From: a virus
Taxonomy: Duplodnaviria; Heunggongvirae; Uroviricota; Caudoviricetes
IMG/VR virus record: IMGVR_UViG_2778261217_000004
Location: 1 to 25,633 of that record
Direction: 5' to 3' (one strand)
Length of the DNA: 25,633 bases
The translations under genes and the position numbers were made by a program. The notes under the pieces are model-generated. The model searched no databases. It saw nothing but the letters and a program-made list of their open reading frames with translations, and was not told the DNA's origin. Numbering within the stretch: position 1 is the stretch's first letter; each line of letters opens with the position of its first letter. Positions 2,168 to 19,808 of this stretch are shown here, in pieces.

Positions 2168-3232
2168 TTAAGTTGATTCCAGACTTCCTTTGGTAAATGC
2201 TTGTATCAGTCTGTTTGCTGCTGCTTTCTGCGCTGCCACATTGGCAATAACAGATAGTTTTTCCTGGCTGGCTTTCGTGCAGATCCCCGCCCAGTTATCC
2301 ATCAGAAAAAAATCCTCTCTTTCTGCAGAGCTGGTAGTTGCACATAGTTTTTCGATCATAGAAGTTATTTCTGCGATGGAATGATTAACCATCATCTGTT
2401 GAACCGCAAAACCGAAAGCGTTAATCATTACTCCATGGAACTGAATATAATCGCGCTTGTACGTAGCGTGGTGTACACCATGTCGGATTGAGTCAATCTG
2501 AGTTAGTGTAATCCATGCCTCCCAGACAGATTCTATATATCCCATTTCAAGTTGTTGATTGCCGTTCCTGGCGAACTTTGACGTTGCATCAGTGAGTGCC
2601 TTGAAACTCACCCACATATTACTTTTTAATGGCACTACGTTGTGTTCAAAATCGGTTATATCGGCAAATACAGTATGTTGGGTCAGGAAGGATATCATTC
2701 CCTGAGCAATATCATCCCGGCCGTTATACGCCATATTGATGGTCGCTGATGGCTTAGAAACGTTGTTATTTATGTCCGAAAAGAACTGCTGCCGGGTTTT
2801 TAGCGGCAGATTCATTGTAAGCATCATGGGAACCATGAGCGTTGATGGGGAACTTCGGCAAAATATCTCAATGCCAGCTGCACGATGTTGACCATCAAAA
2901 AGTTTTATTTCGGCGTCGAGGGGAATTCTGGCTATACCAACATTTGTGTTGCCAAACGGTACAAATTCTATATTCGAATCACAGTTACCTACGAGAGGGG
3001 GAATGATAAAAGGCTCATTTCTTGAGTCTGCGTTAGTGAGATAATTTAAAAATTTTCGTACTCGATTTGGATTAATTTCTCGCTGAGAGCGTTCCAGTGT
3101 ATGGCCGTAATTATCTGAAGCGAGGAAACGAGCCAGCGATCTTCCTGGTATGGTAAGGAAGAGTGTAACAGTACCACCCTGTACACCTTGCGATGCCGGA
3201 AATTCGAATGAATGATTACCAACCTGACTCAT
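2168..3232 (-). CDS. DGQHR-domain protein (DndB-like, ParB/Srx-fold)
   Basis: 354-aa ORF with the signature KLFDGQHRAAG; strong RBS AGGAGGATATAT before the ATG; lies downstream of exo in the leftward early operon. Confidence 0.8.
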   Translation of the reverse strand: MSQVGNHSFEFPASQGVQGGTVTLFLTIPGRSLARFLASDNYGHTLERSQREINPNRVRKFLNYLTNADSRNEPFIIPPLVGNCDSNIEFVPFGNTNVGIARIPLDAEIKLFDGQHRAAGIEIFCRSSPSTLMVPMMLTMNLPLKTRQQFFSDINNNVSKPSATINMAYNGRDDIAQGMISFLTQHTVFADITDFEHNVVPLKSNMWVSFKALTDATSKFARNGNQQLEMGYIESVWEAWITLTQIDSIRHGVHHATYKRDYIQFHGVMINAFGFAVQQMMVNHSIAEITSMIEKLCATTSSAEREDFFLMDNWAGICTKASQEKLSVIANVAAQKAAANRLIQAFTKGSLEST

Positions 3233-5223: not shown

Positions 5224-5634
5224 TTAGTGATTCAGGCCATTACCGCGTCCGTCGAAAAAAACTTCCACGAGCAAATCACGGGTATAAGTGCGCTCGATGC
5301 CGCGATGCAGATATAGCCGTCCGCGTAAATTAGCTGATGCAGTCCAGGTACCATCTTTGTGTTTGACCAGCATTCCTGGCATGACCGCACCTCGATTAAC
5401 GGTCTGCGTTCCGTAATGTTGATGAACCATAAAAACTCCTGCCCGTAAGCTGGGCTGCTGAACATATAGAGACTTCTGCGCGTATTCAGGCGGTGGATGG
5501 CCGCCGGTTGTCATAACTAAGCCGCCTCGTTGAAGCGACTGAGGTATGAGGTGTTGAGTTGATTTCAGCTGGTCACACCGACGTTCACGCGTCCGTTTCA
5601 CCCCTCGCACTCCCCGGAGCCTGCCGAAATTCAA
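5224..5634 (-). CDS. Hypothetical protein, first ORF downstream of candidate pL; start uncertain (TTG at 5634, internal ATG with AGGAG RBS at 5430)
   Basis: 136-codon open frame; N-terminal arginine-rich stretch [15 protein letters not shown]; internal start MVHQHYG preceded by AGGAG. Confidence 0.4.
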
Positions 5635-5699
5635 GCTGCGGATCTAAGCGGTCATCGCAACGGTGAATCAGGTGGTTGCCGTATCGTTGTGTTGTTGCG

Positions 5700-5790
5700 A
5701 CATGGTGATAATAGCTATTGCTATTGGTGGTATCAATACTTATTGCTATTGATTGATGTGTTTTGATATTAACTGTTTGATAGCAAAAAG
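5700..5790 (-). promoter_or_regulatory. Candidate OL/pL: leftward sigma70 promoter with operator repeats
   Basis: Minus strand TTGATA (5731-5736) - 17 nt - TATTAT (5708-5713); ATAGCAAT/ATTGCTAT motif repeated, same motif as in the cI-cro intergenic region. Confidence 0.5.
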
Positions 5791-5874: not shown

Positions 5875-5906
5875 GGGACAAAAGAAAACCCGGCACGGTG
5901 GCCGGG
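5875..5906 (-). terminator. Intrinsic terminator ending the cI / ImmA-like / PIN-like transcription unit
   Basis: Minus-strand hairpin CCCGGCCACCGTGCCGGG followed by TTTTCTTTTG, 6 nt after the stop of the 5912-6424 gene. Confidence 0.65.
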
Positions 5907-5911
5907 ACGTT

Positions 5912-6424
5912 TTATTTCAAAGAAAAATTATGACTAGCGTATCTTGGAAGAAATTCATATAGTGTTAATGTCTTAACGCCGTGAGAAGCAGCAGCATCCG
6001 GGATCATTATTCTTTTTTTAGGTTTGCCACCGGATGGTTTCTCATGGGTAATAATAGTATATCCATGTGTCATCGCATGGGCTATTAAAAAAGCATCTGC
6101 TTTTTCATGGCTTGCAAAATCAAACTTTGCCTTTTCGGTAACATCTAATTTAGTTGACCAATTTATTAACTTTGCATAATTTTCTATTGAACTATGCTCA
6201 TCTTCGAAGAATGATGATGGTAACTCTTCTTTAATCCATTTACACAATGGATCATCTTTTGCACATAGTTCTTTTTTTACAGCATTAATGCTATAAATCA
6301 GACCATTCATGTGTAAAGCGAGAAGAAAATCCCAAAATATTTTGCAATAATTGAAGTTATATGCAAAGTTTTTTGCCTCTATGAAGACATTACTATCAAT
6401 TAAGAATTTTCCATTATGAATCAT
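5912..6424 (-). CDS. PIN-like (DUF4411-type) predicted nuclease
   Basis: 170 aa; N-terminal FLIDSNVFIEA resembles the first strand and Asp of PIN domains; ATGA start-stop overlap with upstream metallopeptidase gene. Confidence 0.7.
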   Translation of the reverse strand: MIHNGKFLIDSNVFIEAKNFAYNFNYCKIFWDFLLALHMNGLIYSINAVKKELCAKDDPLCKWIKEELPSSFFEDEHSSIENYAKLINWSTKLDVTEKAKFDFASHEKADAFLIAHAMTHGYTIITHEKPSGGKPKKRIMIPDAAASHGVKTLTLYEFLPRYASHNFSLK

Positions 6425-7560
6425 AGAGATTCTCGTTTTTTATAAAATTCAACAACTGTATCTGCTTTTACATTTAGCAGTACGCCTGCTTCCCTTAATG
6501 GTAATTGTTGAGACATTGCTTTGGAAATTATTATATTCGTAAGTTTTGGACTGTTACGAACAGGTAATGTGTTAAAGAAAGAACCACCATTAGATTCTTT
6601 TTTGGGCTTATTGTAAGCTTGATCTTTAATTATCTCCAAAGTGTTTCTTTCTATCAAATCTAATTGTAACGCTTTGATTGCACAAGCGAAATCACTAACC
6701 TTAAATAACTTAGAAACCTCTTTTACCCGATAATAATTATTATCGCTGGATGCATTAAGCCAGAAAGATTTGAAGAGATTATCAGGCATTAAGATTTCAG
6801 CAGCAACTTTATTACAAAAAGATTCTATGTTTTTTTCTGTGTCCCACCCAGAGACTCCATCGACTCCAAGCCAAAGATGAGCCACCTCATGAAATAATGT
6901 AAATACCTGCGCAGATAACGCGTCCGAGCTATTTACAAAAATGATCGGAGCAACGCTATCAGATATACAGAAACCACGAAACTCTCGCGTGTCAAGTTTT
7001 CTTTTATTATTATTACCCACAACACCATTCTTGAAAACTAATACGCCAGTGTCTTCTATTAGTTTTGCCACTTTAGAAAAATAGCTCTCAAAAGTGACAT
7101 TTTTTATCTCTTTTTGTATATCAAAATGTATTGTGTTTGCTATGTCTGTAGCAACAACCTTATAATTTAATTTTCTATTAAATTTAAATTTACCAATAAA
7201 ATCGAGTGGATCATCATTACCATTTTCTCTTAAATAGTCTTTGTACCACTCAAGTTTATATTCTATATCATAGTAAACATCAAAAAAATCTTTTCCTAAC
7301 TCACGGCTATTTATAGCTTGCCTTAAGTCAGGGATCTTGGGTTTGGCTGGAGTTGGTGGCGTTTCAAGAAATAAAAAACCGAAAGGGATTCCTCCAATTT
7401 TTGCCAGTTTTTCTGCTGCGGATTTACTTACCACTCCGTTAAGAAATTTATTAATCTTTTTGGGCATGACTTGGTCAGCAAGAGTTTCGATAGAAACTCC
7501 TTGAGAATTTGCTATCCAATCAATCATCTTCCTAGACAATTGAAATTCAACCGCTGCCAT
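6421..7560 (-). CDS. HTH-containing ImmA/IrrE-family zinc metallopeptidase (COG2856/DUF955-like)
   Basis: 379 aa; N-terminal HTH-like segment; HExxH motif HEVAHLWLG; AGGTGA RBS. Confidence 0.75.
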   Translation of the reverse strand: MAAVEFQLSRKMIDWIANSQGVSIETLADQVMPKKINKFLNGVVSKSAAEKLAKIGGIPFGFLFLETPPTPAKPKIPDLRQAINSRELGKDFFDVYYDIEYKLEWYKDYLRENGNDDPLDFIGKFKFNRKLNYKVVATDIANTIHFDIQKEIKNVTFESYFSKVAKLIEDTGVLVFKNGVVGNNNKRKLDTREFRGFCISDSVAPIIFVNSSDALSAQVFTLFHEVAHLWLGVDGVSGWDTEKNIESFCNKVAAEILMPDNLFKSFWLNASSDNNYYRVKEVSKLFKVSDFACAIKALQLDLIERNTLEIIKDQAYNKPKKESNGGSFFNTLPVRNSPKLTNIIISKAMSQQLPLREAGVLLNVKADTVVEFYKKRESL

Positions 7561-7689
7561 GTTATCACCTAGTTAAAAAAAACTATTATTCAACAATTAT
7601 TGTTGTGCACCTGATAGCTAACGTCAAGCCTAATTTATTGCCTTACTACAGTAAGCTGAAAAGCGAAGTGCATAATTTTGTTCTGATTT

Positions 7690-8382
7690 CTACCCATGCT
7701 TTCTATATGTCTGCGGCATGCTCCCGATGACTTTCCCGAAGATGAACACGCGGTTCATCTCGTCTTTCTCGATCGGGTCCCACGGTGAGTAGCTCTTGTT
7801 ATCAGAGATAACCAGCAGCTTATCCTTCATCATTTGCAGGCGCTTTACATGGGCGGTGTCGTCATACAGAAACGCATAGATACCATCACCGTCGAAAGAT
7901 TTAACAGTGATATCAACGAACAGAAGATCACCTGGTTCGATCGTTCCTGACATGCTGTCACCGCGTACGTTAATGATGCGGATATTTTCTGCCTTCCTGC
8001 CATCGAACATGTGACGAGCATCGTCAAACGAGTACTCAACCGAGCGTAGAACTTCTACAAACTCACGGTTGATGACTCCCGGCCCGGCACTCACTTCTAT
8101 ATCAAGAACGTCAATCTTGAAGTATTTGGGATGGTTGGCAGTAGGCTTCCCTAATTGTTGACCGTCATTTCTCATCGGGCCTATGCCTGATGAGAGCCAC
8201 TCTGTTCGAACACCCAATGCATTAGCTATTTCAACAATTTTTGTTGAGCCGCGCGCGTTGCCGCTTGTCAGTCTCCAGATTGTGGGTTGAGCTACGCCAG
8301 ACGCCTTTGCAAGAGCGCCTTGAGACATTCCAGATTGTTCCATCGCTAGGTTTAAGCGATCAGCAAGAGTTTCTTTTTTCAT
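7690..8382 (-). CDS. cI: CI-type prophage repressor (HTH plus LexA-like S24 peptidase domain)
   Basis: N-terminal HTH (MSQGALAKASGVAQPTIWRL), C-terminal S24 motifs GDSM and VKRL; start taken as ATG 8380-8382, the open frame extends to TTG at 8418. Confidence 0.9.
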   Translation of the reverse strand: MKKETLADRLNLAMEQSGMSQGALAKASGVAQPTIWRLTSGNARGSTKIVEIANALGVRTEWLSSGIGPMRNDGQQLGKPTANHPKYFKIDVLDIEVSAGPGVINREFVEVLRSVEYSFDDARHMFDGRKAENIRIINVRGDSMSGTIEPGDLLFVDITVKSFDGDGIYAFLYDDTAHVKRLQMMKDKLLVISDNKSYSPWDPIEKDEMNRVFIFGKVIGSMPQTYRKHG

Positions 8383-8492
8383 AAGTTTTAATTTATACGC
8401 TTGCGTATTGATGGTCAAAACACGTTTTGCTATTGTTATGATTAATACGCATTGCTATTATTTATTCATTGCAATACCAATAGGAATTGATA
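8383..8492. promoter_or_regulatory. OR / PRM / PR divergent regulatory region
   Basis: Perfect palindrome ATACGCTTGCGTAT (8395-8408); ATTGCTAT repeats; rightward TTGTTA (8433-8438) - 17 nt - TATTAT (8456-8461). Confidence 0.6.
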
Positions 8493-8720
8493 ATGACAAA
8501 TCAAACCATTCAACTCGCAATCAGTATTACAGGTAGTCAAAAACGACTGGCAGATCTATGCGGTGTAGCCCAACCCACTGTTTGGCGTTGGCTACACGGT
8601 GGCGGAATTGATGCCCGCTATGTAATGAAAATTGTCTCAGCCACTGGTGGAAAGATTAAACCAGCAGATATTCGTCCCGACCTCGCACCATTGTTTAACG
8701 CGAGTAATTCTGCCGCCTAA
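8493..8720 (+). CDS. cro: Cro-like HTH regulator
   Basis: Small ORF divergent from cI; HTH QKRLADLCGVAQPTVWRW; AGGA RBS 7 nt before ATG 8493; track ORF begins at TTG 8487. Confidence 0.8.
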   Translation: MTNQTIQLAISITGSQKRLADLCGVAQPTVWRWLHGGGIDARYVMKIVSATGGKIKPADIRPDLAPLFNASNSAA

Positions 8721-8744: not shown

Positions 8745-9290
8745 ATGACTATGCAACCACTTACATACCAACAGACTAGCGGATTTAGCCCGACTGCGGT
8801 GATAAATCGTTCTCAAACAAAACAAGCTCCAGGCCACGAAAAAATCCGTGATGCCGTCCGCGCCTGGTCGGCTGCAGATAATCAGGATGTTGTTGCCGCA
8901 CTCATTGTGAATGAGTATCGGGAGCAGGGCGGCGGCACCATCGATTTCCCTGATGATGTCAGCCGTGCACGCCAGAAGCTGTTCCGCTTCCTCGATAACA
9001 AATTCGATTCTGAAAAATACCGAAATAACGTGCGTGAACTGACCCCGGCAATTCTGGCGGTACTACCGCTGGAATATCGCGGTTACCTGGTTGAGCAGGA
9101 TAGCTTTATGGCTAGGTTGGCTGAAATGGAAAAGGAACTCAGTGAGGCAAAACAGGCTGTCATTCTCAACGCACCACGCCACCAGAAACTGAAGGAGATG
9201 AGTGAAGGCATTGTGTCGATGTTTCGAGTGGACCCGGATCTGGCTGGTCCATTGATGGCGATGGTCACCACCATGCTGGGGGCAATATGA
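8745..9290 (+). CDS. YdaT-family protein in the cII position
   Basis: 181 aa; NEYREQGGG and LTPAILAVLPLEYR resemble Rac YdaT; directly after cro. Confidence 0.7.
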   Translation: MTMQPLTYQQTSGFSPTAVINRSQTKQAPGHEKIRDAVRAWSAADNQDVVAALIVNEYREQGGGTIDFPDDVSRARQKLFRFLDNKFDSEKYRNNVRELTPAILAVLPLEYRGYLVEQDSFMARLAEMEKELSEAKQAVILNAPRHQKLKEMSEGIVSMFRVDPDLAGPLMAMVTTMLGAI

Positions 9291-11303: not shown

Positions 11304-11370
11304 TGAAACAGGTGAGTTGAGTTCAAACTGTAGTACAATTCTCTCCAGTTTGAACAGGAAAGAATATGCT

Positions 11371-11703
11371 ATGAACCCTTATATTTATCTTGGTGGTGCA
11401 ATACTTGCAGAGGTCATTGGTACAACCTTAATGAAGTTTTCAGAAGGTTTTACACGATTATGGCCATCTGTTGGTACAATTATTTGTTATTGTGCATCAT
11501 TCTGGTTATTAGCTCAGACGCTGGCTTATATTCCTACAGGGATTGCTTATGCTATCTGGTCAGGAGTCGGTATTGTCCTGATTAGTTTACTGTCATGGGG
11601 ATTTTTCGGCCAACGGCTGGACCTGCCAGCCATTATAGGCATGATGTTGATTTGTGCCGGTGTGTTGGTTATTAATTTATTGTCACGAAGCACACCACAT
11701 TAA
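11371..11703 (+). CDS. emrE: SMR-family multidrug efflux transporter EmrE
   Basis: 110 aa from MNPYIYLGGAILAEVIGTTLMKFSEGF..., matching E. coli EmrE; track ORF starts further upstream at 11317. Confidence 0.93.
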   Translation: MNPYIYLGGAILAEVIGTTLMKFSEGFTRLWPSVGTIICYCASFWLLAQTLAYIPTGIAYAIWSGVGIVLISLLSWGFFGQRLDLPAIIGMMLICAGVLVINLLSRSTPH

Positions 11704-11733
11704 AATAATTTGTTTCTAAACGACTAAAATATG

Positions 11734-11770
11734 GAGGCTCTTATATTTATATGAGCCTCGTTTTATGCTT
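11734..11770 (+). terminator. Intrinsic terminator after emrE
   Basis: Hairpin GAGGCTC-(12 nt loop)-GAGCCTC followed by GTTTTATGCTTTTTG. Confidence 0.6.
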
Positions 11771-11957
11771 TTTGTTAATGTCTTTATTTTTTATGTATTC
11801 TTTTGTGCTTTCAAGATTATGGCGTAAGAAAATTGCAATACGATTATTGTTGTATATTCAAGATAATGTGACCTTAATTGTCTTTTTAAATAAAAATTAA
11901 ACAAAAATTATATCCCACCACTAAGGTTTATAAAAGCATACGTTAGCAGGTGTCACC

Positions 11958-13484
11958 ATGAAAAAAGCCATAGCATATATGCGATTTTCATCACCAGGTC
12001 AGATGTCTGGTGACTCATTAAACCGACAGAGAAGACTTATTGCTGAATGGTTAAAGGTAAATAGTGATTATTATCTTGATACCATAACATATGAAGATTT
12101 AGGATTAAGTGCATTCAAAGGAAAGCATGCACAATCAGGAGCTTTTTCGGAATTTTTAGATGCTATAGAGCATGGTTATATATTGCCAGGAACTACATTG
12201 TTAGTTGAAAGTCTGGACAGACTTTCAAGAGAAAAAGTCGGTGAAGCGATTGAACGTCTGAAATTGATTTTGAATCACGGTATTGATGTTATAACTCTTT
12301 GCGACAATACAGTCTATAATATTGACTCTTTGAATGAGCCATATTCATTAATAAAAGCCATACTTATAGCACAAAGGGCAAATGAAGAAAGCGAGATAAA
12401 GTCAAGTCGGGTTAAATTATCATGGAAGAAAAAACGGCAGGATGCACTGGAATCAGGTACGATTATGACGGCGTCTTGTCCGAGATGGCTCTCCTTAGAT
12501 GACAAAAGAACGGCTTTTGTTCCAGACCCCGACAGGGTGAAAACTATTGAGCTAATTTTTAAACTCAGGATGGAAAGGCGCTCATTGAATGCAATAGCCA
12601 AGTATTTAAATGATCATGCTGTAAAGAATTTCTCAGGAAAAGAAAGTGCATGGGGACCTTCTGTAATTGAAAAATTATTAGCGAATAAAGCTCTGATAGG
12701 TATATGCGTACCTTCATATCGTGCAAGAGGGAAAGGGATAAGTGAAATCGCTGGCTATTATCCCAGAGTCATATCAGATGATTTGTTTTACGCTGTACAG
12801 GAAATTCGGTTGGCACCTTTTGGTATTAGCAATAGTAGCAAGAATCCTATGCTAATAAATCTACTTCGAACAGTTATGAAGTGTGAGGCTTGTGGTAATA
12901 CCATGATTGTTCATGCGGTATCTGGAAGTTTGCATGGCTATTATGTTTGTCCAATGAGAAGATTACATCGATGTGACAGGCCATCAATAAAAAGAGATTT
13001 GGTTGATTATAATATCATTAATGAATTGCTTTTTAATTGTAGCAAAATTCAACCAGTTGAAAACAAGAAAGATGCTAATGAAACTTTAGAGTTAAAAATT
13101 ATTGAGCTTCAGATGAAAATTAATAATTTAATCGTTGCATTGTCTGTCGCGCCTGAAGTTACCGCTATAGCAGAGAAAATAAGACTATTAGATAAGGAAT
13201 TACGAAGGGCTTCGGTATCATTGAAAACTTTGAAGAGTAAAGGTGTAAATTCATTCAGTGATTTTTATGCTATTGACTTAACCAGTAAAAATGGACGAGA
13301 GTTATGCCGTACACTTGCCTATAAAACATTCGAAAAAATCATAATTAATACGGATAATAAAACCTGTGATATCTATTTTATGAATGGCATTGTTTTTAAA
13401 CACTATCCTTTAATGAAAGTAATATCCGCCCAGCAGGCGATAAGTGCTCTCAAATATATGGTTGATGGTGAGGTTTATTTTTGA
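11958..13484 (+). CDS. ybcK: Serine recombinase (resolvase/invertase-type catalytic domain, large C-terminal extension)
   Basis: 508 aa; N-terminal AIAYMRFSSPGQ catalytic-serine region; AT-rich gene; AGGTG RBS. Confidence 0.8.
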   Translation: MKKAIAYMRFSSPGQMSGDSLNRQRRLIAEWLKVNSDYYLDTITYEDLGLSAFKGKHAQSGAFSEFLDAIEHGYILPGTTLLVESLDRLSREKVGEAIERLKLILNHGIDVITLCDNTVYNIDSLNEPYSLIKAILIAQRANEESEIKSSRVKLSWKKKRQDALESGTIMTASCPRWLSLDDKRTAFVPDPDRVKTIELIFKLRMERRSLNAIAKYLNDHAVKNFSGKESAWGPSVIEKLLANKALIGICVPSYRARGKGISEIAGYYPRVISDDLFYAVQEIRLAPFGISNSSKNPMLINLLRTVMKCEACGNTMIVHAVSGSLHGYYVCPMRRLHRCDRPSIKRDLVDYNIINELLFNCSKIQPVENKKDANETLELKIIELQMKINNLIVALSVAPEVTAIAEKIRLLDKELRRASVSLKTLKSKGVNSFSDFYAIDLTSKNGRELCRTLAYKTFEKIIINTDNKTCDIYFMNGIVFKHYPLMKVISAQQAISALKYMVDGEVYF

Positions 13485-16942: not shown

Positions 16943-18040
16943 TTAGAACTGGTAAACCAGACCTACAGCAACGATGTCATCAGTGCTTACACCGAGTGCT
17001 TTAGTGAAGTCATTTTTGTCAAGCAGGTTGATTTTGTAATCAACGAAAGTAGACATATTTTTGTTGAAGTAATAGGTTGCACCTACATCAACATATTTGA
17101 CTAAGTCCTGATCGCCCCATACTCCAAGATCCTTACCTTTAGATTGCAGGTAAGCAACGGACGGACGCAGACCGAAATCGAACTGATATTGTGCAACAGC
17201 TTCGAAGTTTTGAGCTTTATTAGCAACGAAGTGATCAGCAAATACAGTCATATTCTGGGTTTCAGAATAGGTAGTGGCCAGGTAAATGTTGTTAGCGTCA
17301 TATTTCAGACCTGCGGCCCAAACTTCTGCATTTTTACCGGAAGCAAATACTTCAGGAAGAACTTTCCCTGCATTAACTTGAGTGTCGGTACGATCAGATT
17401 TCGCATAAGTTGCACCGATACCGAATCCTTCGTATTCATAGGTAGCAGAGAAACCGAAGCCATCACCGTTACCTTCAGTGTAGTTATCGAAATCGCTACG
17501 ATCGTTTTTGCCTTGGTACTGAGCAGCAAAGTTCAGACCATCAACCAGACCAAAGAAGTCGTTGTTACGATAGGTTGCAACACCAGTGGTGCGACCAGTC
17601 ATGAACACATCTGTTTGAGTCCAGGTATCGCCACCGAATTCTGGCAGAACGTCAGTCCACGCACCGATGTCGTATGCTACACCGTAGTTACGGCCGTAAT
17701 CGATTGAGCCGTAGTCACCGAATTTCAGGCCTGCAAATGCAAGACGGGTTTTGTCTTTGGAGGAACCTTGAGATTCAGCGCGGTTGCCTTTGAATTCATA
17801 TTCCCACTGACCGAAACCAGTCAGCTGATCGTTGATTTGGGTTTCGCCTTTGAAGCCCAGACGAACATAAGTAGTATCACCATCATCTGCATCGTTAGAG
17901 GAAAAGTAGTGCTTGGCATTAACTTTCCCGTACAGATCCAGCTTGTTACTGTCTTTATTATAAATTTCAGCTGCCTGAGCAGACATCGCCATCAGTACTG
18001 ATGCAGCTACAGCAGAAATTGCCACTGTTAATTTTTTCAT
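16943..18040 (-). CDS. nmpC: Outer-membrane porin (OmpC/NmpC family), intact
   Basis: 365 aa with signal peptide [23 protein letters not shown] and C-terminal VGLVYQF; uninterrupted reading frame. Confidence 0.93.
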
Positions 18041-19224: not shown

Positions 19225-19808
19225 TGGCATTCAGAATGAGTGAACAACCACGGACCATAAAAATTTATAATCTGCTGGCCGGAACTAATGAATTTATTGG
19301 TGAAGGTGACGCATATATTCCGCCTCATACAGGTCTGCCAGCAAACAGTACCGATATTGCACCACCAGATATTCCGGCTGGCTTTGTGGCTGTTTTCAAC
19401 AGTGATGAGGCATCGTGGCATCTCGTTGAAGACCATCGGGGTAAAACCGTCTATGACGTGGCTTCCGGCGACGCGTTATTTATTTCTGAACTCGGCTCAT
19501 TACCGGAAAATGTCACCTGGTTATCCCCGGAAGGGGAGTTTCAGAAGTGGAACGGCACAACCTGGGTGAAAGATGCAGAAGCAGAAAAACTGTTCCGGAT
19601 CCGGGAGGCGGAAGAAACAAAAAACAGCCTGATGCGTGTAGCCAGTGAGCATATTGCGCCACTTCAGGATGCTGCAGATCTGGAAATCGCAACGGAGGAA
19701 GAAACCTCGTTGCTTGAAGCCTGGAAGAAGTATCGGGTGTTGCTGAATCGTGTTGATACATCAACTGCACCTGATATTGAGTGGCCTGCAATCCCTGTTA
19801 TGGAATAA
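19224..19808 (+). CDS. tfa: Tail fibre assembly protein (Tfa family)
   Basis: 194 aa [31 protein letters not shown]..., typical lambdoid Tfa; TAATG overlap with upstream stop. Confidence 0.9.

Follow-up and report, generated by a model that had tools for sequence, protein, structure and literature searches.

Introduction

The closest described relative of the gene pair considered here is the VapBC52 toxin-antitoxin system of Mycobacterium tuberculosis, for which the structures of the complex of the antitoxin Rv2515c and the toxin Rv2514c (9VZY) and of the free toxin (9VZZ) have been reported (Singh et al., Nucleic Acids Research, June 2026, PMC13273310). The antitoxin VapB52 begins with an XRE-like N-terminal domain, which is followed by a peptidase of the IrrE type and by a C-terminal domain made of helices. 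One antitoxin binds a dimer of the PIN toxin (1:2); binding requires the N-terminal domain, and the active site is blocked by the C-terminal domain (PMC13273310). In the resting antitoxin, the zinc is capped by Cys229, a so-called "cysteine switch". Single-stranded DNA (ssDNA) triggers the self-cleavage of VapB52, with "FR" in the linker as the proposed site and with loss of the N-terminal domain, and this self-cleavage is thought to free the toxin VapC52, which cleaves tRNAs (PMC13273310). Here, we analyse a pair of genes with the same architecture in 25,633 nucleotides of viral DNA (Caudoviricetes), the IMG/VR record IMGVR_UViG_2778261217_000004, positions 1 to 25,633. This whole stretch, referred to as the window, is a lambdoid prophage that is integrated beside icd and that is 100% identical to that of E. 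coli PapRG-06-3. The pair lies immediately downstream of the repressor gene cI.

Related combinations of proteins have been described before: The pairing of a helix-turn-helix (HTH)-DUF955 protein with a DUF4411 protein was predicted in 2017 as a three-component toxin-antitoxin system (PMC5499597), and ImmA antitoxins paired with PIN-like toxins are part of the NetFlax network. Moreover, the RosmerTA systems, which use Zn-peptidase antitoxins, are validated phage defences, and one of the validated examples is phage-encoded (Millman et al. 2022; Ernits et al. 2023).

Results

The pair consists of two open reading frames on the minus strand, 6421-7560 (379 amino acids) for the predicted antitoxin and 5912-6424 (170 amino acids) for the predicted toxin, which are bounded by the stop codon of cI and by an intrinsic terminator; they lie directly downstream of cI and on the same strand. 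The two frames overlap by four nucleotides, ATGA at 6421-6424, in which the start codon of the toxin gene lies over the stop codon of the antitoxin gene. A sequence-only reading of this DNA had expected a Peptidase_M78 (DUF955) protein in the upstream frame and a DUF4411 or PIN-like protein in the downstream one, and hidden Markov model searches recovered both: Peptidase_M78 (PF06114) matches residues 169-291 of the antitoxin with E = 1.2e-13 and 51.4 bits (gathering cutoff, 22), and DUF4411 (PF14367) matches residues 7-161 of the toxin with E = 1.1e-37 and 129.7 bits (gathering cutoff, 23.5).

For the antitoxin, the assignment is supported by Pfam, PADLOC and PHROGs, by the profile of its family and by an AlphaFold2 (AF2) model. 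phrog_2439 covers the protein over its full length (E = 3e-76), the best PADLOC match is capP (E = 9.8e-15), and the name given in RefSeq is "ImmA/IrrE family metallo-endopeptidase". The sole match in NCBIfam, the spr1629 antitoxin family, was rejected as an equivalog, as it reached 24.6 bits at a cutoff of 335. The peptidase motif HEVAH occupies residues 224-228 (H224-E225-x-x-H228, nucleotides 6877-6891), and the downstream glutamate ligand is E246. In an alignment of 34 full-length relatives with 36-78% identity, H224, E225, H228 and E246 are invariant, as are D78 and R80 of the linker, which carries the motif D78-L79-R80 (nucleotides 7321-7329) with leucine or phenylalanine at position 79 across the family. 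The AF2 model (predicted local distance difference test score, pLDDT, 89.3) shows an N-terminal domain of five helices (residues 10-64, in a domain of about residues 1-65), the peptidase core, and a C-terminal domain of four helices (about residues 328-378), and its best folds in the PDB are CapP (7t5t) and IrrE (3dti/3dte) with a probability of 1.00 over about 189 columns.

The expectation of an HTH_XRE match was not borne out: None of the Pfam HTH models matched the N-terminus at E < 0.1, and the presence of an XRE-like HTH rests on the five-helix domain of the AF2 model, on the profile alignment to the VapB52 chain 9vzy_A and on a weak hhalign match to the 434 repressor (E = 6.5e-4). When 434 cI, 434 Cro, P22 C2 and SinR were compared by hhalign, weak matches in a consistent register were obtained for 434 cI and SinR only.

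The identification of the toxin draws on Pfam, PHROGs, the family profile and AF2. The protein is matched by phrog_11126 (E = 2e-67) and is named "DUF4411 family protein" in RefSeq. Its N-terminal motif FLIDSN includes Asp10 (D10, nucleotides 6395-6397), and D10, E52, D110 and E128 are the invariant acidic residues in an alignment of 32 toxin sequences. In agreement with a PIN-like nuclease, the top 15 PDB fold matches of the AF2 model (pLDDT 86.5) are all VapC/PIN proteins.

Both proteins could be connected to the M. tuberculosis system at the level of family profiles: The profile of the antitoxin family matches VapB52 (9vzy_A) over residues 10-333 with E = 2.5e-22, and the profile of the toxin family matches the VapC52 chains 9vzy_D (E = 9e-14) and 9vzz_A (E = 5e-13). 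The gene order is the same, with the antitoxin gene first and the gene for the DUF4411 PIN toxin second, and so is the layout of the antitoxin with an XRE-like domain, an M78 peptidase with HExxH and a downstream glutamate, and a helical C-terminal domain. The N-terminal domain of VapB52 can be aligned with the one described here, the VapB52 zinc ligands H216, H220 and E245 align with the conserved H224, H228 and E246 of the E. coli protein, and D-F75-R76 aligns with D78-L79-R80, D-F-R being present in many relatives. On the toxin side, the four acidic PIN residues are kept in both proteins and the catalytic D6 of VapC52 aligns with D10. Judging from these alignments, the cassette is a member of the HTH-ImmA/IrrE (M78) plus DUF4411 toxin-antitoxin family, with VapBC52 as the characterised example. 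It differs from VapBC52 in its proteobacterial host, in being borne by a prophage in the slot next to the repressor gene, and in its own promoter-like site. The pair had been described from sequence alone as a protease-gated nuclease; this matches the distant homologue, with the amendment that the gating there is achieved by self-cleavage of the antitoxin and not by cleavage of the toxin (PMC13273310).

The association of the two genes is independent of their surroundings. Searching from the toxin side and from the antitoxin side, we reached ten unrelated contexts of relatives with 32-78% identity, and in all ten the M78 gene is followed by an overlapping or abutting DUF4411 gene. Three of the contexts are lambdoid prophages in which the pair stands beside the repressor gene, with three different repressor types; in Rac-like prophages of Klebsiella and Enterobacter, the pair is flanked by the gene for another type of repressor and by the early-left operon. 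In Trabulsiella, the pair is found at the end of a Mu/P2-like prophage beside tail-fibre, invertase and DinI genes, and in Actinobacillus it occupies a chromosomal site. The further contexts are a phage-like Arc/pRha region, an integrase island with HicAB, a position beside DUF499, DUF1156 and HEPN genes, a site in Herbaspirillum near an Abi_alpha gene, and a position between housekeeping genes.

The cassette seems to bring its own expression signals. A consensus scan predicted a sigma-70-like promoter on the minus strand at 7599-7627, with TTGACG (7627-7622) and AACAAT (7604-7599) separated by 17 nucleotides, and this site is followed by the Shine-Dalgarno sequence AGGTGA at 7570-7565 (minus strand). 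When the cassettes of E. coli, Enterobacter, Trabulsiella and Klebsiella are compared, TTGACG-17-CAACAAT and the Shine-Dalgarno sequence are the only upstream blocks that have been kept, and the homology among the four starts exactly at the -35-like TTGACG and ends at the stop codon of the toxin gene. The promoter-like site travels with the cassette, and it would serve as its promoter. A perfect dyad, CAACAATAATTGTTG (7591-7605), overlaps the -10 region and the predicted transcription start; a shorter form, ACAAT-N3-ATTGT, is present in Trabulsiella, and only a degenerate version is seen in Enterobacter and Klebsiella. The HTH domain of the antitoxin might regulate its own operon at this candidate operator. 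The GC content of the cassette, 0.28-0.39 as compared to about 0.5 for the backbone, was counted in favour of a foreign origin. Positions 5907-7689 of the window are best explained as a self-contained, mobile two-gene cassette made up of a predicted promoter, antitoxin gene and toxin gene.

The borders of this cassette can also be seen from the side of the phage. The order of elements is cro-OR-cI-[cargo]-terminator-OL/pL-kil-gam-bet-exo, and the right-hand boundary of the cargo slot is the stop codon of cI (open reading frame 7690-8418, minus strand; RefSeq places the start at 8382), which encodes a repressor in which HTH_3 and, for self-cleavage, Peptidase_S24 are recognised. On the other side, five nucleotides after the end of the toxin frame, the slot is closed by the intrinsic terminator at 5879-5906 on the minus strand, which reads CCCGGCCACCGTGCCGGG (stem, 5906-5889) and then TTTTCTTTTG (T-run, 5888-5879). 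The candidate OL/pL follows at 5708-5750 (minus strand) with a promoter-like sequence TTGATA-17-TATTAT (5736-5708) and copies of the putative operator 9-mer AATAGCAAT. In the whole window, exact copies of this 9-mer are found only at 5717-5725, 5742-5750 and 8451-8459; with the promoter-like site, they stand at the expected positions and fit the assignment of OL/pL and OR. The anatomy given in the sequence-only reading, an overlapping pair after cI and a terminator ahead of OL/pL, is therefore confirmed, with a correction concerning the terminator, which had been seen as the end of the pair: It is present at 5906-5879, and it is a feature of the backbone that is shared by phages with other cargo and that corresponds to the terminator behind rexB in lambda. 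Indeed, the backbone homology of the phages PhiR5_1, PhiR47_2 and PhiR70_1 runs to 5906, 5907 and 5920, respectively, and resumes at 7690 or 7691. From these breakpoints, only 5907-7689 is cargo, and the terminator and cI belong to the backbone.

Expression from the repressor promoter, as had been proposed for the pair, needs to be reconsidered in the light of these boundaries. With a conserved promoter-like site of its own, the cassette would not have to depend on the repressor promoter. At the same time, no terminator-like site is present from the stop codon of cI to the first frame of the cassette, and read-through from cI is thus unblocked. In the 62 bp that separate the stop codon of cI from the -35 element of the cassette, there is a second small dyad, CTTACTGTAGTAAG (7642-7655); this segment has no homology to the backbone or to the other cassettes.

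Genes such as rexA-rexB of phage lambda and stk of phage 933W are expressed in the lysogen and exclude other phages, and they are located beside cI. The location of RexA is also given in PMC12315714. The analogy of our locus to the rexAB position, which the sequence-only reading had drawn, holds at the level of synteny: As in lambda, the slot is downstream of cI, co-oriented with it and followed by a terminator before OL/pL. The proteins themselves are different, with no sequence or fold kinship to RexA or RexB and no match to Rex in Pfam, NCBIfam, PHROGs or PADLOC; moreover, the predicted effector is an RNase rather than a membrane channel, and the cassette has its own promoter-like site. As to 933W, a Ser/Thr kinase gene is found in the same slot of other E. 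coli genomes that share the flanks.

This slot is a place of exchange. Flanks that match those of the window are present in 2217 of 5426 complete E. coli genomes, and the survey of a spread sample of these genomes, which the sequence-only reading had suggested for lambdoid prophages, uncovered a varied content of toxin-antitoxin or defence-type cargo as well as vacant sites: The slot can be empty or contain a Ser/Thr kinase, an ASCH protein with a hypothetical protein, DUF6932 with a hypothetical protein, a HipA-family kinase with DUF3037, a Panacea-domain protein with a hypothetical protein, a BamE-like protein, a LAPAL-motif protein, or two or three hypothetical proteins. Between the same flanks, PhiR5_1, PhiR47_2 and PhiR70_1 carry HipA/HipD, GevT/GevA or three hypothetical genes. 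The combination of a HipA-family kinase with DUF3037 corresponds to HipA/HipD in the phage record, and many of the slot cargos are uncharacterised; our literature search found no relevant paper on GevT, HipD or PhiR. As every cargo is bordered by the stop codon of cI at one end and by the same terminator at the other, the cargo of this slot would be co-transcribed with cI.

The M78-DUF4411 pair is present in 33 genomes, always on the chromosome, at an identity of at least 99.7%. Distant homologues of the toxin are encoded on 31 plasmids, of which 17 are conjugative, and several of them stand beside an annotated ImmA/IrrE or XRE gene. One entry of PLSDB, the 1.31-Mb E. coli "plasmid" CP099174.1, encodes a 100% identical toxin protein beside an annotated ImmA/IrrE gene; this entry probably represents a contig of the chromosome that was wrongly labelled.

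Several other features of the prophage were noted. No N-like open reading frame is present on the minus strand at 5431-5705, the stretch that separates the candidate pL from kil (5224-5430; phrog_294, Kil), and no N gene is annotated in the records of the related PhiR phages either. This 275-nucleotide leader does not fold better than shuffled sequences (z = -0.01); a put-like or other structured RNA was not found in it, and there is no Rfam match in the region. Between xis and exo, the minus strand at 2168-3232 encodes a stand-alone DndB-like (DGQHR) protein of 354 amino acids (Pfam DndB, E = 3.8e-46; phrog_7901, function unknown) with no other dnd genes nearby, and this may be another cargo gene for defence or anti-defence. 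The genes in the positions of cro and cII (8487-8720 and 8745-9290, plus strand) match the Pfam families "YdaS_toxin" and "YdaT_toxin", names that are misleading for genes in these lambdoid positions. The nin region (11317-13484, plus strand) carries DLP12-like cargo with emrE, ylcJ and a gene for a large, ybcK-like serine recombinase of 508 amino acids. Upstream of the lysis genes, RefSeq annotates a porin gene in the identical prophage (16943-18040, minus strand). The late region contains a full-length match to the Rfam IS009 RNA (19567-19765, plus strand; 217.7 bits).

Discussion

The interpretation that we regard as probable is that the pair is a signal-gated toxin-antitoxin module of the VapBC52 type which serves as abortive-infection cargo of the prophage. 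According to this model, both proteins would be made in the lysogen from the promoter of the cassette and probably also by read-through of the cI transcript. The 379-amino acid antitoxin would keep the dimer of the PIN toxin inactive, with the XRE-like domain anchoring the toxin and the helical C-terminal domain covering its active site. A signal generated during infection would then switch on the zinc peptidase (in VapB52, this signal is single-stranded DNA), and the peptidase would cut itself in the linker, at the conserved motif D-[L/F]-R. The PIN nuclease set free in this way would cleave RNA, probably tRNA, so that translation stops and the infection is aborted. The families, predicted folds and conserved residues of the two proteins speak for this interpretation, as do the profile matches to both chains of the VapBC52 complex, the layout of the antitoxin, the strict pairing, the promoter-like site of the cassette, its low GC content and the other cargo of the slot. 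Further support comes from the validated RosmerTA defences, from the ImmA antitoxins with PIN-like toxins in NetFlax and from the prediction of 2017. For the E. coli pair, we infer expression in the lysogen, neutralisation, the trigger, the RNA target and phage exclusion from what is known of the homologue.

Other systems use the same protease fold. CapH/CapP, IrrE/DdrO and ImmA/ImmR share the M78 peptidase fold and are based on signal-activated proteases that cleave an HTH domain. However, CapP, IrrE and ImmA cleave a separate repressor and thereby de-repress genes, whereas the HTH is fused to the protease in the protein described here, and the predicted output is the release of a bound toxin; moreover, this protein has neither a GAF domain nor a cysteine switch. 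With RosmerTA, the pair has in common the organisation in two genes, an antitoxin composed of an HTH and an ImmA-like Zn-peptidase, and a toxin that can be swapped. It was nevertheless rejected as a RosmerTA system: Several RmrA models of PADLOC match the antitoxin, two of them nearly over its full length, with E-values of 6e-8 and weaker, and PADLOC provides no match for the toxin. The characterised RmrT toxins include proteins that depolarise membranes, and these differ from DUF4411 nucleases.

A number of observations weigh against the idea of a VapBC52-like abortive-infection module. The homology to VapBC52 is detectable at the level of profiles only, and the C-terminal domain cannot be aligned by sequence. 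The zinc-ligating C229 of VapB52, which has a counterpart in CapP, aligns with S237 of the E. coli antitoxin, and this position is occupied by serine in at least 90% of the 34 relatives; with serine in place of the cysteine switch, the mechanism of activation, and possibly the trigger, may differ from VapB52. Even for the M. tuberculosis system, protection from phage D29 was obtained by over-expression of VapC52 only and not with the co-expressed pair (PMC13273310). The RmrA matches of the antitoxin are weak (E about 1e-7), and when the toxin was compared to 5027 PADLOC models including every RmrT model, none matched at E < 0.1. Moreover, there is no close homologue in 50,697 sequenced phage genomes; a DNA search returned no close phage relatives, and the protein search returned a single match of 27% identity from an uncultured phage. 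A trigger that consists of ssDNA or DNA damage would also fire upon SOS induction of the prophage itself and thus harm its carrier. Finally, in E. coli ATCC 43886 (NZ_CP024256.1) and E2528-C1, the antitoxin gene is split by IS1 at about codon 176. The toxin frame is unchanged in these alleles, being wild type and, in ATCC 43886, identical to that of IAI1. As the strains with the split alleles are viable, the toxin gene is tolerated without an intact antitoxin. The polarity of IS1, which may silence the toxin gene, and the loss of translational coupling may account for this tolerance.

Other functions of the pair have to be considered. It might be an addiction or stabilisation module that penalises cells which lose the prophage or its immunity region, and any effect on other phages would then be incidental. 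The type II-like operon with its overlapping genes and the candidate autoregulatory operator would suit such a module, as would the distant toxin homologues on plasmids, 17 of the 31 conjugative, and the presence of HipA-type and Panacea-type toxin-antitoxin cargo in the same slot. However, the antitoxin is a large, folded and sensor-like protease rather than a labile peptide, VapBC52 is activated by a signal (ssDNA) and not by decay of the antitoxin, the neighbours of the pair in other genomes are often defence genes, and the strains in which IS1 splits the antitoxin gene are viable. We consider addiction as the main function rather unlikely; it would in any case be compatible with a role in defence and not exclusive of it. 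An involvement in the prophage's own genetic switch is, in our opinion, very unlikely. Here, the peptidase would fire together with the autocleavage of CI during the SOS response, and the released RNase would help or time the lytic transition. The location of the pair, which is within the transcription unit of cI or beside it, the fact that ssDNA, the trigger of VapB52, is the same signal that activates RecA, and the functions of Rex in the transition from lysogenic to lytic growth (cited in PMC12315714), with a similar role proposed for RexAB of lambda, speak for this idea. Yet, the same pair also occurs outside of prophages and far from any repressor gene, phages with an immunity region of 96-98% identity do without it, and the slot is often empty.

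The order of a repressor gene followed by a gene for an M78 peptidase on the same strand is reminiscent of immR-immA, and it could be imagined that the peptidase controls induction as an anti-repressor by cutting the CI encoded next to it or repressors from other phages, as ImmA cleaves ImmR in ICEBs1 (the mechanism is summarised in PMC10440598). The repressor of this prophage, however, is equipped for self-cleavage, with its own S24 domain, an Ala-Gly site (VSAGPG) and the serine motif GDSM; moreover, phages that lack the peptidase make do with the same CI, at a nucleotide identity of about 97%. Conversely, the peptidase is tied to DUF4411 in ten out of ten contexts and not to a repressor, and in the three lambdoid contexts three different types of repressor are encoded upstream. 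An ImmR/ImmA-type pair was rejected on these grounds, i. e. a CI with its own Peptidase_S24 domain, the finding of CI without the peptidase and of the peptidase without a repressor, and we regard an anti-repressor function as hardly conceivable.

Much of what has been said about the abortive-infection module was already known or predicted: the family, its architecture, the pairing of the two genes, the likely mechanism in the homologue and the role of cargo next to cI. The novelty that the sequence-only reading had attributed to the pair was therefore over-rated, since the pairing had been predicted in 2017 (PMC5499597), RefSeq has names for both proteins, and a homologous pair has been characterised. 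In the literature, we found no paper on an M78-DUF4411 pair in E. coli, and Rousset et al. 2022 do not describe it. The new aspects are modest: a proteobacterial, prophage-borne member of the family in the rex slot with its own promoter-like site, the exchange of cysteine for serine at the position of the switch, and the slot as a site where cargo is swapped.

The toxin-antitoxin family is large, comprising 5,418 clusters at 50% identity, and so far its biochemistry has come from M. tuberculosis only; the cassette would provide a tractable representative of this family that is borne by an E. coli prophage. In addition, toxin-antitoxin and defence-type cargo is exchanged between repressor gene and terminator in this lambdoid lineage, and the slot is a convenient place in which to look for new exclusion genes. 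It is tempting to speculate, even if we think this quite doubtful, that the conserved serine at the position of the switch allows the proteobacterial branch to ignore generic ssDNA, a trigger by which a prophage would poison itself upon SOS induction, and to answer a different, infection-specific cue, or to be restrained when its own prophage is induced. If this were true, the pair would be a tractable E. coli model for the trigger specificity of M78 sensor proteases and for the way in which a prophage avoids being targeted by its own abortive-infection cargo.

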